NCBI GenBank assembly: GCA_951406725.2
Contig: OX597816.1
Span: 91,698,001 to 91,762,000 of the forward strand
DNA length: 64,000 nucleotides
Source of the DNA: Octopus vulgaris
Lineage: Eukaryota
Direction: 5' to 3'
Shown here: positions 27,831-60,121 of the stretch, piece after piece
Layout of the letters: each line of letters starts with the position of its first letter
Numbering within the stretch: position 1 is the first letter of the stretch
Position numbers and translations under genes: made by a program
Notes under the pieces: generated by a model
Databases searched by the model: none
Told to the model about the DNA's origin: nothing
The model's input: only the letters and a program-made list of their open reading frames with translations

Positions 27831-28735
27831 ATCATCATCATCATCGTTTAACATCCATTTTCCATGCTAGCATGTGTTGGATGGTTCAACCGGGGTCTGG
27901 GAAGCCAGGAGGCTGCACTAGGCTTCAGTCTGATCAGGCAGTGTTTCTACAGCTGGATGCCCTTCCTAACATCAACCACTCCGTGAGTGTAATGGATGTT
28001 TTTTATGTGCCACCGGCACAGGGGCCAGAGGAGGCTGGCGAATGACTACAATTGGCCGGTGCTTTTATGTGTCACTGACACGGACACCAGTCAGGTGGTG
28101 CTGGCATCTGTCATGTTCGAACGGTGCTATTTACGTGTCACCGGCTCAGGTATCTTAACTACAATTTCCATTTGATTTTTATTTTGATATTGGTGTTGAT
28201 GTACTTGACTCAGTAGGTCTCCTCAAGAACAGCGGGTCACTCTATGATCAAAGGTTAGCACAGGAGGCTATCCTGTGAGCCATGAACTCACTTCATTTGT
28301 TGGGTCTTCACAGTCACAGCATATCTCAGAGGTCTCGGTCTTTGTCATTTCCTCTGTGTGGCCCTACATTCCACCGGCATGGGTGTCACAACTACAATAT
28401 CCATATGATTTTTATTTTGATGTTGATGAACTTGACACAATAGGTGTCCTCAAGCGCAGCAGGCCATCCTGCAAGCCATGAACTCACTTCATTTGTCGGG
28501 TCTTCGAAGTCACAGTATATCTCCAGAGGTCTCGGTCTTTCATCATAGCCTCTGTGAGGCTCAACGTATGAAGGTCATGCTTGACCACCTCATCCCATGT
28601 CTTCCTGGGTCTACCTCTACCCTGGATTCCTTCAACAGTTTAGGAGTGGCACTTCTTCACACATCTCTCCTCATCCATCCGTAGTACATGACCATACCAA
28701 TGCAAACGTCTCTCCTGCATGCTACATCCGATGCT
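27831..28735 (-). mobile_element. RTE LINE 3' end with internal tandem duplication
   Basis: (ATC)n tail at 27831; ~28140-28370 is repeated at ~28372-28565. Confidence 0.85.
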
Positions 28736-30353
28736 TCAACAGCTTTGACTGTCTAAAACCAGTGGATTTGTAGAGCAATCAATCTCTCAACAGTACCTTA
28801 TCCAATTTAAACCTATTTTCAGCACATCAGAGATACTCAATCTTCAATCTCCTATCAGGAAGCTCAAGACAAAAATGACACTCGCTCTGGCTAGCCTAAT
28901 TTGTGCATGTGCTCCATTTCTCATAAAAAAAGACTTTTGTATCACCATTTACACTACTTTTTGTTTTGATGCTTTTTGATAAGTGCTTTCCAACAATCTA
29001 ACTGGGAAAATACTAGATCATCATTTTTCATTTTCCATTGTTTTTGTGGGCGTCAATAAGCCACTTTGGCTATATAAACACAATGCAAATTGTTTCACAT
29101 TTATCTCCTTGGTAGATATCATTACTGCAGAAATCAACAGAATTTTTTTCCTTCTGACATATCGCCCATTTAGACTAGTTTTAAATACTAAGACATGTTC
29201 GAGCTGAATGAGAAATCAATTTGTTGTTTCTCATTTTCTTCAAATTTTCTTGTATCACAAATCTATTTTCTTTTCTCCTAGCCTCACCGACATTGTCTGC
29301 TCCCTTCTCTATTCAAGGACATATTCTTATCGTTGTTTGTACAACAGTGAGTTATACATTTGACTCTATAAAAACATTTATGAAAACATACATTTTTGGA
29401 AACTCTGCTTTTATTCATGTAATTTGGACAATTTTTTTTCTCTGTATGTATTGTTGCCTACTTTGAACATGCAATTCACCAACTTTTGGAAGAACATGTG
29501 CTGTTTAATTAGTTTGAATTATAGTACCAGTAACATAGAGGTTTTTACTTCTGGCAGCATACAGGAAATAAAAGATAACTATTTTAATTTATTCATTATT
29601 GCTATCTCTGTGTAAACTCATTTTCTACACATGCACATACAGACACACAGACACAGACCCCCCCACACACACACACAAATACACATCATATTATCATCCT
29701 CATTTTTTACCCATTTCTCCATGGGTTGGATGCATTTTTATCTGCAGAACAACACCAAAAACAGTGACCTCACAGACAACACCAACATGCTATACATGCC
29801 ATCAAGACTGATAGATGAACAAAAATACTGTTGCGTAACCAAGTGTAGTATGCAGATCACTTTGTAAATTTCTTTCTATCATCTGATATTGGCAAGTTTT
29901 GAGTAGGGCGGTTGGAGAATGAGAGCCATTTTATGCTTTGCCAAAAAAGCCATAGGTAAGAAGTGACATATGAATAGGTGCCTTGTCATTGTTCAGCATC
30001 TAGATTTTGTTTGTCCATGTCATGGTTAGACCCTTCATAATGTGTGTGTGTGTGTCTTTATGTTTGTGTTCTGCCCTCACTACCAATTGATAACCAGTGT
30101 TGGTTTGTTTAAGTCCCCACAACTTAGCAGTGCCAGGCTTACAAAAAAAAGAGATATGTACTGGGGTTGGTTCTTTTGACCAAATAGTTCTTCAAGACAG
30201 TGTTCCACCGAGGCTGTAGTTTAATGACTGGAAAAAGTAAGTAATAAAAAGTAAAGATATATAATTTCTAGCATTTAGGGAAACACTTTATTACAAAAGA
30301 AGCAGATACAGTTTCCTTGAGAAATGGGGATTAATATGCTAAGTTCAACAAAG

Positions 30354-31543
30354 TGTAGGAGTGGCTGTGTGGTAAGTAGCTTGCTTACCAACCACATGGT
30401 TCTGGGTTCAGTCCCACTGCATGGCACCTTGGGCAAGTGTCTTCTACTATAGCCTTAGGCCAACCAAAGCCAGATGGAAGCTGAAAGAAGCCTGTCGTAT
30501 ATGTTTACATGTGTACGTATGTAAGTATTTATTAACAAACCAACTGTAACGAAGACAATTGAAATTTAAATGTACCGGCCAATCATATTTAGCGTTCGAT
30601 TCTTAACTATTTCTGAACGTAATACTTTACACATATCACAGTCGAAATTATGACTTGCACTCGCATATACGTCTGTACACTTGTGGAACTTAATATCATG
30701 TAAACCAATGTTTTCATTTTTCATTTTATATGTATATGCCAATCTTTAATGCTTTGCATGGTACTGTAGTATTATTGTTGTTGTTGTTTTTGCTATTATG
30801 TTGCTAACCGCATGATGTATATATTGTTTTGCTGGTATTAATGTTATTAATAATAATGATATTAGTAGCAATAGTGGCAATGATAATAGTAATGATGGTA
30901 ATATTAATGGCATTTTGTAACTTAATATAATGAACTCTTGACTTTGTATATCTGCATTTGAATATGGATATGTGTATGTTTTCTATATTGTAATATCATA
31001 ATATTATGTTGACCAACTGTAACATTGAATATTGAACATGTGATTGTATACTGATTTATATTATTATGTATATGTATATATATATATGTATAGGAGTATG
31101 GGTATATGCACTCATATGTATGTGTATATTATATATTATGGGTATGTACCCACTATTGTATGGGTGTACCTCCTCAGATATTCATATTTAATTTAGTTTG
31201 TATTTCATAATCACTGAATAGGCCTTGGGATATTTTTGTAAGTGTTTCATTTATAACTACATATTGACCTATCAAACATGGCTAATATGAGCATAATGAG
31301 ACACCCATATCTGCATGGCCGAAACAGCTGTAAGATGTAGTTTATATTTATATTTGTATTTATTTATATTCACTTATACATACTGTACTTATTGTATCAT
31401 ATTACTCTTTCATGTACATTGTTTTGTTCTATATTATTATGTTTGACCTTAATGTTTATATGTTGTGGTTTAATAAATTATGTGATTGGGTATTATCTGG
31501 TAGTTGATCATTGATTAAGATGTGTTTCTCCATTTTCTTATTT

Positions 31544-31592
<49 letters not shown>

Positions 31593-31812
31593 ATGTGTGT
31601 GTATATGTTTGCGTGTCTATGTCCCCCCACAACATCATTTGATAACTGATGCTGGTGTGTTTACATCCCCGTAACTTAGCAGTTCGGCAAAAGAGACCGA
31701 TAGAATAAGTACTAGGCTTACAAAGAATAAGTCCTGGAGTCGATTTGCTCGACTAAAAGGTGGTGCTGCAGCATGGCCACAGTCAAATGACTGAAACAAG
31801 TAAAAGAGTAAA
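30354..31812 (+). mobile_element. SINE A split by a ~1 kb AT-rich insert
   Basis: Head at 30354-30520 and tail at 31573-31812; the insert lies inside the internal microsatellite. Confidence 0.8.
31209..31337 (+). ncRNA. Degenerate hammerhead ribozyme with ~100-nt stem II
   Basis: CTGAATA (one mismatch to CUGANGA), GGCC...GGCC closing a long hairpin, GAAAC-AGCT-GTA. Confidence 0.55.
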
Positions 31813-31844
31813 GCTACCATGCTGAATGTAGTTGTTATTTGTCT

Positions 31845-32003
31845 ATCTGTTAAGTGTTTAGCATTAGGACGAGCATCCAGTCATAGGAACCATGCCAAAA
31901 CAGACATGGAGCCTGGGCAGCTCTTCAGCTGGTCAGCTCCTATCTAACCGTCCAACCCATGCCAGCATGGAAAACCGACATTAAATGATGAGGATAATGA
32001 TAA
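31845..32003 (+). mobile_element. RTE 3' tail fragment
   Basis: CCAACCCATGCCAGCATGGAAA..ACATTAAATGATGA. Confidence 0.75.
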
Positions 32004-32270
32004 TGTTTCTTCTCAAAACCCACTCTGTATGTGAGTCAATGAGTGTGTGCATGTGTATGTGTGTGTGTGAGACAGAGAGACAGACAGAAAGAGAGAGGGA
32101 GAAAGGGAGAGAGAGGGAGAGAGAGGGAGGGAGAGAGGGAGAAAGAGAAAGGGGGAGAGGGAGAGAGAGAAAGAGAGATGGTGAAAGGGTGATAGATCAA
32201 AAAGATAGATAGAGAGGGATATATATATAGAGGAATAGAGAGAGAGAAGGAGAAAGAGAGAGAGAAGGAG

Positions 32271-32301
<31 letters not shown>

Positions 32302-33063
32302 GCATATATATATCTCTCTTCTTCTCTCCCTCTTTCTCCCTCTCTCTCTATTCCTCTATATATATCCCTCTCTATCTATCTTTTTGCTCTATATCTATAT
32401 ATATATATATATATATATATGCTGTCTAGTTGTTAAAGATGCCTTTACCATTAATAAAAAAAATAGAAGAAATAATAATCATTTGACAAGTCCCATCGTG
32501 TTCAATCTTTCCAGCATCAGTTCGTATTCAGGATTACTGTACTCCCATATGGGTAAATTGACTTGGCGGCATTCTGATGGCATAAAGATTGTCTCTGTCA
32601 TGTGGGTAGAGCTTAGGAAGGGTACAGAGTTATCTTAACAGCTGGAAATGTTGACAGTCTTTACCATGCTATATGTTGGGTGTGGAAGGATGGCTGAGAA
32701 AGAGTGGAGAAGTCAGTGGTAGGGCATAGAATATATAATGTGTGACATTTTTCAAAAAGAAAGATGCCCTAAATTCAGGCTAAAAATATTGTAAATTTAA
32801 GGTTAAAAACTACGCTGAGAAGCTGTATACACTGGATACTTTATATTATTTTATACACACTCATTCATAGACACATACATATGTCATGCACGTATATATA
32901 CACATATATGAACAAAATATATATACATGCACATATATATGCATACATGATATATATATATGTATATACATATATATACACACACACATATATATATACA
33001 CATATGTATATACATATATATGCACATTCATATATATATATGTGTGTGTGTGTATATATATAC

Positions 33064-33167
<104 letters not shown>

Positions 33168-33989
33168 TAGACAAACAGTCATATACACAGACAGACAAAT
33201 AGACAAACAGATAGTTAGATATATATACATATATATACATATAGGTGGATGTTAAACGGTAATGATAATGATGATGATGATGATGATGATCTTAATTATA
33301 TATACATTATATAATCTAGTTCTTTCTGGCTTTCATTTCTCAGTTCATCTTAGAATTATCTTAATATCTGATTCCATGTTCATTTTGACTGAAACTTAAA
33401 TGTTTCAGTATCCAATGCATATAATTTATCTGGTTCAAACAAGAACTTGCATGGAAGACAAGTTGCCACAAATAGATATACTGAGTCCTGTAGCATTTTT
33501 AAAACACTCTAAATTCAAGTCAAAATTATCTCAACAGTTCAGGATATAAAAGTTGTTATTCTCCAAGAGATTGTATATATTGAATAAATATATTTAACAA
33601 ACAATAGTTGTTTTTTTGGAGGTTTTTTTTTACTGGCTTTAGCTTCTCAATTCTGTTTAGTGTTTCATATTGTCTGATATACAGTGAGTATAAATGAAAA
33701 TGTCACGACTAGGTAGTTAGGGAAAAGAGTTTATCAGAGATAATGAGAAAGAAAAGGATGTATTACTATGAAGAGAAAGAAACCAAAAACATAACAAAAA
33801 TATTACTATGAGCAAGTGAATAAATGAATTCAGGAAAAAGTCAAAGTGCACTTGGTGATCCACCTCAATTAAGAGTTCATCAATGTTATTTGTAGCTACA
33901 AGAACATCTTCATAATTTGTGTGTTGTTTGTAGGGTTGTTAAACAGAAATTTTAAAAAGCAGTATTTCAATAGCTAAAAGGCATCAAAT

Positions 33990-34440
33990 TATCATCATTG
34001 TTTAGTGTCTGTTTTCCAAGCTGGCATGGGTTAGCCAGTTTGAGTGGAACTCGTAAGCTGGAGAGCTGTACCAGGCTCTAGTCTGTTTTGGTTTGGTTTC
34101 TAAAACAGACTGGAGCCTGGTGTAGCTCTCCAGCTTACCAGTTCCTGTCAAATCATCATCATTTAACATCCACTTTCCATACTAGCATGGGCTGGATGGT
34201 TCGACAGGGGTCTGGGAAGCCAGGAGGCTGCACCAGGCCCAGTCTGATCTGGCAGTGTTTCTACAGCTGGATGCCCTTCCTAATGCCAACCACTCCATGA
34301 GTGTAGTGGGTGCTTTTTATGTGCCACTGGCACAGGTGCCAGGTGAGGCTGGCAACAGCCATGATCGGTTGGTGCTTTTTACGTGCCATTGGCACTGGTA
34401 TCACAACTATAATTTCCATTGATTTTTGATTGATTTCAAT
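33990..34440 (-). mobile_element. Two RTE 3' tail fragments with a local inversion
   Basis: 3' UTR motifs; hairpin at ~34047-34146. Confidence 0.7.
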
Positions 34441-35064
34441 AAAATACCAATAAAAGCACCTGAGCAAGAACATCACATAAATAGGTGGAAATATCAAAAG
34501 ATTTATATTAAAAAATTCATGTGAGACTGTGTTTGAATGATATAACAACACCAACCAAACATTGAATAACTTTTATTTCAACTCGCATATTATTGAGGTT
34601 GGTCATGAATTATAAGATTCCACAATAGCTCAAAACATTTGAAGGAATAATTCAGTAGTGTTCATAAATAGTTGATTACAAAAACTCTGTACTGAGATTT
34701 GTCAAGATAGGAGAAAAGTACACAGTAGATTCATTTCAGCCTACTAAATTGACATATTGAAGCTAGGCAGATGGTCATGAAAGAAAAAAACAACTATTAC
34801 AAACATCAATAGGATGTGGGTAACAGGTCTGCAGATTACTATGCACTCAGAAAGTTGATGCTATAAACAAGCCTTTATATAACTCTTGTACCAAGATGTT
34901 CCAGAAAGATCTATATTGATTTATCACAAGAAGCCTGGCTGTTGATTGGCCCATAACTTGGCCTCTCATTTAAACAAGGTTGTGCTATGTTGTGACATAA
35001 ACTTTGTAATTTGCCCAGTCAGTTTCAAGTCTGGCTACATTCCATATTTTCAAAGATTTCCTGA

Positions 35065-46720: not shown

Positions 46721-46783
46721 CCACCTGATGAATGTCTGCTACTCAAAAATTTGATGACAGAAGACAGGAAACAATCGTAGTGG
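46721..46783 (+). ncRNA. Minimal type I hammerhead ribozyme
   Basis: CCAC-CTGATGA-A-TGTCT...AGACA-G-GAAAC-AATC-GTA-GTGG; stem I CCAC/GTGG. Confidence 0.7.
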
Positions 46784-56554: not shown

Positions 56555-56636
56555 CTTTCCTGATGAGAAGATTGCATCTTGCACCGTTTATTCCTTTGGA
56601 ATAAAACCATGTTCTCTTTGAAACATATGTCGAGAG
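56555..56636 (+). ncRNA. Type I hammerhead ribozyme (right arm), GUC cleavage site
   Basis: CTTTC-CTGATGA-GAAGA...TCTTT-GAAAC-ATAT-GTC-GAGAG. Confidence 0.8.
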
Positions 56637-60038: not shown

Positions 60039-60121
60039 TTCTCAACATATGTTTCGAAGACTGCATATTCTCAATTCCGAAGGAATAAAGGGTGCATTAT
60101 GCCGCCTTCTCATCAGGAAAA
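60039..60121 (-). ncRNA. Type I hammerhead ribozyme, third copy of the 56.4 kb family
   Basis: TTTTC-CTGATGA-GAAGGC...GTCTTC-GAAAC-ATAT-GTT-GAGAA. Confidence 0.75.

Follow-up and report, generated by a model that had tools for sequence, protein, structure and literature searches.

A probable decayed type I hammerhead with a 100-nt helix II arm in the terminal repeat of an octopus Penelope-like element, with sibling copies predicted to be slow dimer cutters

The window, a 64,000-nt stretch of the Octopus vulgaris genome (contig OX597816.1), contains what we consider, on balance, to be a mutated type I hammerhead within the terminal repeat of a Penelope-like element, the siblings of which are predicted to cut slowly as dimers. 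The coordinates of the motif, its parts and its surroundings are given in Table 1. The hammerhead reading proposed earlier from the letters of this stretch is supported, and the unusually long helix II arm is a lineage-wide trait and not a single oddity. The window copy itself is probably a mutated hammerhead in a decayed fragment, for which a function is unlikely.

Table 1. Features of the hammerhead-like motif and of the element that carries it (window coordinates)
Feature	Position	Strand	Remark
Left half of host repeat; its last part, at the insertion point, is a short TA run	30354..30502	+	matches in many unrelated loci
Penelope-like element, 5'-truncated 3' end (3' UTR and pseudo-LTR)	30503..31546	+	
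Hammerhead-like motif with all named motifs	31214-31336	+	sequence check
Stem I 5' strand, ATCA (ATCT in siblings; first pair broken in window copy)	31210..31213	+	
Core C3-A9, CTGAATA (siblings CTGANGA; G8 lost in window copy)	31214..31220	+	
Domain II, 100-nt unbranched rod: GGCC/GGCC closure, three stacked helices, 10-nt loop	31221..31320	+	
Core G12-A14 (GAA)	31321..31323	+	
Palindromic helix III, ACAGCTGT, predicted intermolecular pairing	31324..31331	+	
GUA triplet, predicted cut after 31332	31330..31332	+	hammerhead consensus
Stem I 3' strand, AGAT	31333..31336	+	
Right half of host repeat, preceded by (TA)n(TG)n	31547..31800	+	

The sequence-only reading had described a hammerhead-like core closing a stem II of about 100 nt, and each motif that it named was located where it had been placed, with GGCC at 31221 and 31317 and GAAAC at 31321. 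The arm pairings were recovered as well (GGATAT at 31228 with ATATCT at 31307, GTGTTTCATT at 31242 with AATGAGACAC at 31295, and CATATT at 31260 with AATATG at 31284), the terminal loop of the arm lying about 45 nt away from the core. Folded alone, the insert 31221-31320 formed a single unbranched rod of -28.3 kcal/mol (z -3.02), with 1 of 200 shuffles as good. Since the opposite strand gave a nearly equal fold (z -2.80) and the z score went down to -1.19 when the flanks were included (31180-31370), folding alone does not single out the motif. An Rfam scan of 28000-35000 gave no hammerhead match at E values up to 10, which bears out the expectation that standard descriptors would miss the long-armed form.

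The window copy departs from a type I hammerhead at G8, with T at 31219, and at the core-adjoining stem I pair, with A at 31213, and both changes are private to it. It is probably inactive because G8 is lost, and the change G8C abolishes cleavage of the anole element (PMC11167929). A small hairpin at 31144-31168 (GTACCCAC...TGGGTGTAC), 45 nt upstream of the core, is kept in the siblings. A second CTGAGGA on the minus strand (31171-31177) was dropped as a private change, with A at 31176 in 2 rows and T in 32.

The earlier description of an AT-rich insert of about 1 kb within a SINE microsatellite stood as to the insert and the TA/TG repeat that it interrupts; the insert itself was recognized as a truncated Penelope-like 3' end, and the host repeat around it is taken to be an octopus SINE. 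The insert was searched for ORFs, and no long ORF was found in it. Copies of the element have a common right end at 31546 and ragged left ends, often with an inverted partial arm, and the element was covered by four runs, which cannot show ends or strand. Elsewhere in the window, a near-perfect 80-nt inverted repeat at 34056-34135 lies in another repeat, and its matches to miRNA models were below the cut-offs and at the level of chance only.

Longer siblings extend upstream into reverse transcriptase (RT) and GIY-YIG-like coding sequence, the protein order being RT with DKT and YRDD, a linker with CxCX5C, and, at the C-terminus, a GIY-YIG-like end. DKT was present in 11/11 copies shown, RWK in L102, L103, L104, L113, and L116, RWR in 4/11 and RWL in 2/11 of the copies shown, and CxCX5C in L061, L065, L102, L104, L105, and others; CxCX5C was looked for in L114 and L118 and not found there. 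After the RT follow VYQC...VYIG and then CxxC and CxH near the protein end. The Pfam GIY-YIG model gave a match below the cut-off (E 0.018) in one of three proteins and none in the other two. The near-full relative L103 combines RWK, DKT, and a direct terminal repeat with a 100-nt motif as in the window family. A direct upstream repeat was found in 8 of 11 long copies, six of the eight repeats containing the whole hammerhead, and the distance from repeat to repeat was 3.7-5.6 kb in L103, L107, L114, and L116. RWK, DKT, and CxCX5C are described as marks of the Hydra clade of Penelope-like elements in PMC8557442, and further Hydra-clade traits, namely, (TA)n insertion, pseudo-LTRs, and inverted truncated arms, are present. 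To judge from these motifs, by which it was assigned, the element is a Penelope-like retrotransposon with Hydra-clade protein motifs. Open frames of 860-1090 aa occur in several families (L105-L110, L112-L118), the copies of which are 92-99% alike, and this suggests recent activity; in the same loci a long, Asn-rich stretch separates RT from endonuclease.

The window stretch belongs to a dispersed repeat with 1062 first-look candidates, 40 of which were scored and showed 93-97% identity. The 30 best loci gave the sibling set of 36 rows, four of them being the same arms fetched twice. The core base and stem I had been called degraded in the window copy, and the siblings bear this out: each of the 35 rows that extend over both sites (31 distinct copies; the 36th row falls short) has T at 31213 and G at 31219. 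Siblings hence read ATCT-CTGANGA-[100 nt]-GAA-ACAGCTGT-A-AGAT, and their consensus core is CTGAAGA, with CTGATGA and CTGACGA as variants, rather than CTGAATA, next to a stem I that pairs (ATCT/AGAT). The whole motif was intact in 30/36 rows. The intact family pattern had 48 exact matches in the genome and none in the reversed control. The family follows the type I order, with core CUGANGA, GAAA, and an NUH triplet, and the core GAA was invariant in 45/45 rows, which were chosen by that core. In a 28-row alignment, stem I was paired in 84.8% and the basal helix II in 85.0%, the first helix II pair G10.1-C11.1 was G-C in 22 and G-U in 6 rows, and the palindromic helix III ACAGCTGT was present in 26/28. 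A young sister family with an 85-nt arm has just 2-3 bp of adjoining stem I and a C-U mismatch in the basal helix.

The pairing of the arm was analyzed with RNAalifold. In the wider alignment of 45 rows from three subfamilies the arm was not recovered, only a local hairpin of 4 pairs, and the analysis was therefore repeated on a trimmed alignment of 28 rows; left out were the 17 rows of the more gapped GGCCTATGG group, and those retained comprised the window family, the 82-86-nt sister group, and three copies of 99-101 nt. In these 28 relatives 18 arm pairs were recovered unaided, 6 of them with changes on both sides. The named structure was paired in 89.5% of 1018 cells, compared to 30-51% in slid controls. 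Double-change cells numbered 31 versus 14.6 in shuffles, and 0/500 shuffles were as high, a result that is inflated by related rows and is not a probability, because the 28 rows are relatives selected for an intact core; the number of pairs changed on both sides (8) was not above shuffles (271/500). Compensatory examples include A-U to G-C in 5 and 9 rows and U-A to C-G in 8 rows. Helix 3, 20-25 nt from the core, was 95% paired with three pairs changed on both sides, and the 100-nt and 85-nt subfamilies have unlike top helices. As far as aligned copies can tell, the arm pairing is conserved by compensatory changes between subfamilies.

The genome was then scanned with the core pattern CTGANGAG-N-YGAAACRNNYGTH, in which pairing was not required and helix III was of the form ACRNNYGT only. 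Matches (reversed control) numbered 688 (23) for a domain II of 8-38 nt, 19,112 (26) for 44-74 nt, 3,698 (23) for 74-104 nt, and 552 (34) for 105-135 nt, where 74-nt domains are counted twice and 39-43 nt and >135 nt lie outside the pattern search. Long arms (44-135 nt) thus make up about 23,000 of roughly 24,000 core matches. Some of the core matches are not sound motifs: among 75 folded ones (18 relatives and 20 others chosen by hand, 7 tandem copies, and the 30 unselected longest), stem I had at least 3 bp in 42, the basal helix at least 3 bp in 53, and z was -2 or lower in 46. A descriptor search with stem II up to 150 nt, as had been proposed for checking the motif, found long arms at 10 of 20 loci of the octopus genome.

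Long arms are also found across distant families. Families about 50% apart in the RT have arms of 55, 57, 60, 85, and 100 nt with unrelated sequences; common to them are the core, a helix III that is palindromic, and a stem I that pairs, although its sequence and that of helix III differ. Those traced to an ORF have arms of 55-100 nt, a unit of 3.7-5.6 kb, and open frames of 785-1091 aa. Metagenome relatives were obtained by a scan with an alignment, a single protein as query giving no match, and 50 of the 77 carried a sense-strand hammerhead (control 0), all with arms of 10-29 nt under a descriptor that allows 150 nt; some long arms may be missed among the other 27, since the descriptor overlooks the 85-nt family with its weak stem I. 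A protein of Argonauta hians was among 47 homologues. A quick RT tree of 62 rows, rooted at the midpoint with no outgroup and no published Hydra sequence, separated 13 rows of the octopus genome, the Argonauta protein, and three further proteins from the other 45 (SH-aLRT 99 for the split). All 11 long-armed rows had at least 55 nt, with no reversion among the families sampled by similarity to the query, and for rows so sampled this fits a single gain of the long arm in one lineage.

Further hammerheads were observed within the window and in other loci. The window positions 56560-56631 (+) and 56458-56387 (-) carry intact-core hammerheads with 53-nt arms, an inverted pair about 100 nt apart in a TA repeat, and this is another family of the same kind. 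A descriptor hit at 60116 (-) has a 54-nt arm and a GUU triplet, and a weaker one at 46725 (+) a 36-nt arm. Non-coding units repeated in tandem, each with one hammerhead, were found in L169 (534-bp units), L170 (1774-3650, 594-bp units, TA repeats on its flanks), and L204 (545-bp units); their arms are 50, 70, and 26 nt, and they are retrozyme-like. The metagenome relative L265 shares the ACAGCTGT-A helix III of the window family; its domain II has 10 nt and its stem I 11 bp, which makes it a natural short-armed control.

In monomer fold predictions the closure probability of helix III was about 0, the core CUG paired with the palindrome's CAG (with a probability of 0.82 in L007), and the basal arm pairs were near 1.0. 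The predicted dimer was better than two monomers by 5.3-9.7 kcal/mol in 5/5 sequences (5.3 for the window sequence), and the self-duplex of ACAGCTGT, an 8-bp helix III, gave -11.1 kcal/mol; stem I lay outside the minimum-energy fold in the dimer predictions of L007 and L114. The predictions agree with what is given for minimal hammerheads of Penelope-like elements in PMC4209133, namely, a dimer model and low activity. In intact siblings, two RNAs would pair through the palindromic helix III, followed by a slow cut after GUA. The long arm may serve as a stiff extension fixing helix II in a motif whose stem I has 2-6 bp, and the element's own protein may assist cleavage, as shown for the anole element. 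Slow, dimer-dependent self-cleavage of intact siblings, perhaps protein-assisted, is a model that we judge somewhat probable.

The predicted cut lies 214 nt before the common right end of the element and, where copies stand in tandem as in L107, some 520 nt ahead of the start codon. Arms run through it in 47/59 cases (21/29 in the window family and 26/30 in the sister family, where for several rows a single insertion supplied both paired arms), and the ends of insertions are hence not usually set by cutting. No pile-up of 5' ends at the cut was found, with 0/29 in the window family and 1/30 in the young sister family. Between +8 and +46, eight ends of the window family lie in low-complexity AT sequence with varied junctions. 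Cutting may trim or release transcript units and, as most copies were copied through the site, would not be needed for insertion. In the young sister family (L107 6430-6640; L358-L387), ends were seen at two distances from the predicted cut, about +206 and about +410, with an optional tail of about 200 nt and a small hairpin just before the second end.

The readings that invoke cleavage, a neutral arm, protein docking, and circular RNA are mutually compatible. There is nearly an even chance that the ribozyme works and that its arm length plays no part, in which case the basal helix would suffice, the loop would have grown by insertions, and the pairing would merely spare the core. This would suit arm lengths from 50 to >120 nt with no sequence common to distant families, the TA and TAA runs that expand within some arms, the 688 short-armed matches in the same genome, and a top helix that is unlike between the 100-nt and 85-nt subfamilies, but it sits less well with compensatory pairing kept 20-25 nt from the core and with long-armed tree rows that, under similarity-based sampling, show no reversion. 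That cleavage and ligation yield a circular or re-joined RNA copied for more than one round is a doubtful proposal, which would explain both the tandem repeat and the run-through. The whole hammerhead in 6/8 upstream repeats, the 47/59 arms that pass the cut, and the long-armed motifs found elsewhere in 534- and 594-bp tandem arrays speak for it, and such a route was proposed in PMC4209133 and shown for animal retrozymes in PMC7229834; an uncut tandem transcript, however, yields the same pattern, and the main in vitro substrate of the anole element is uncut RNA (PMC11167929).

We regard it as unlikely that the motif is kept as a protein-binding or folding signal that cuts seldom or never in the cell. 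Ends do not accumulate at the cut, among RNA reads of the anole element none begins or ends there (PMC11167929), and stem I is weak in the youngest family, yet the catalytic letters and the NUH triplet are constant across families with unrelated arms and stems. A chance match in AT-rich repeat DNA is so improbable as to be negligible. The z score with flanks, the absent Rfam match, and the failed core of the window copy would agree with it, but the 74-104-nt class alone has 3,698 matches and its reversed control 23, and distant relatives carry the motif at the same position in 50/77 cases with none in the control; together with the 48 exact matches versus 0 and the counts in the length classes, this refutes chance at the level of the family. 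A further scenario we put forward only tentatively, as improbable at present: one octopod Hydra-type Penelope lineage would have gained a helix II rod of 50-130 nt, kept it through the radiation of the group, and had it bound by its own RT-endonuclease, so gating cleavage. If this is true, tens of thousands of cephalopod hammerheads are invisible to Rfam and short-loop descriptors, and there is a natural handle for testing the role of the ribozyme in retrotransposition.

Hammerheads in Penelope-like and Hydra elements have already been published (PMC8557442, PMC4209133). Those of the Hydra clade (Craig et al. 2021, PMC8557442) are, like the motif described here, of type I, on the sense strand, and near the 3' end, and several families in that paper have an ACAG..CTGT-type helix III with GUA, as here; RWK, DKT, CxCX5C, and (TA)n targets are common to both. 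The octopus family Hydra-1_Obim of the same source (2507 bp) has a domain II of 7 bp with an 8-nt loop, and none of the 26 Hydra rows in its File S2 has a domain II of more than about 24 nt, compared to 100 nt here. Hydra elements are generally <3 kb by the same text, a typical and not diagnostic size, whereas those here have 3.7-5.6 kb. The minimal hammerheads of Penelope-like elements (Cervera and de la Pena 2014, PMC4209133) likewise have a short helix I and a palindromic helix III, are mostly solo copies of truncated elements with predicted dimer activity, and occur as opposite-strand pairs 100-700 bp apart; a helix II called "larger than usual" there has 7-8 bp, in contrast to about 30 bp in three stacked helices here. 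An enlarged domain II of 53 nt (9 bp, 35-nt loop, 9 bp), flagged as non-canonical, is listed for PLE-X1_sMoe of Selaginella (PMC8557442 File S2), but this element is from a plant, lacks the endonuclease, and has half the length, and a genome-wide occurrence is not reported there.

The hammerhead of Poseidon PAc from Anolis carolinensis (Frangieh et al. 2024, PMC11167929) also lies in a pseudo-LTR, its copies are likewise not defined by the cut, and two reverse-transcription start sites lead to an optional tail, as in the octopus family. Its cut falls 26 nt inside the ORF and the tail has 30-40 bp, whereas the octopus cut is predicted about 520 nt before the ORF, with ends about 200 nt apart. 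Cleavage of the anole element is protein-assisted and dispensable for insertion in vitro (PMC11167929). Animal non-LTR retrozymes (PMC7229834; bioRxiv 10.64898/2026.07.22.740005) similarly have type I hammerheads linked to Penelope-like elements, and retrozyme-like arrays with 50- and 70-nt arms occur in the octopus genome (L169, L170). A non-LTR retrozyme consists of short non-coding tandem units; the window family, in contrast, is dispersed and joined to an ORF and falls outside that class. No report of a 100-nt arm or of genome-wide long arms in cephalopods was found in the available portions of the literature (also PMC7229834, PMC7761336, PMC13725137, PMC3088659, bioRxiv 10.64898/2026.07.22.740005), although the supplements of PMC4209133, PMC3088659, and bioRxiv 10.64898/2026.07.22.740005 may list longer arms. 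The pairing of motif and element is thus known, and what sets the octopus family apart is its arm of about 100 nt, in a genome where long arms make up most core matches.

Many families are present here, some with frames of 950-1090 aa and copies 98% alike, with a ribozyme that has a long covarying arm. Short-loop descriptors or Rfam can miss most hammerheads in such a genome, with about 23,000 long against 688 short arms for one core pattern. Swapping arms between relatives with long and with short ones would make the role of the hammerhead in Penelope-like elements testable.
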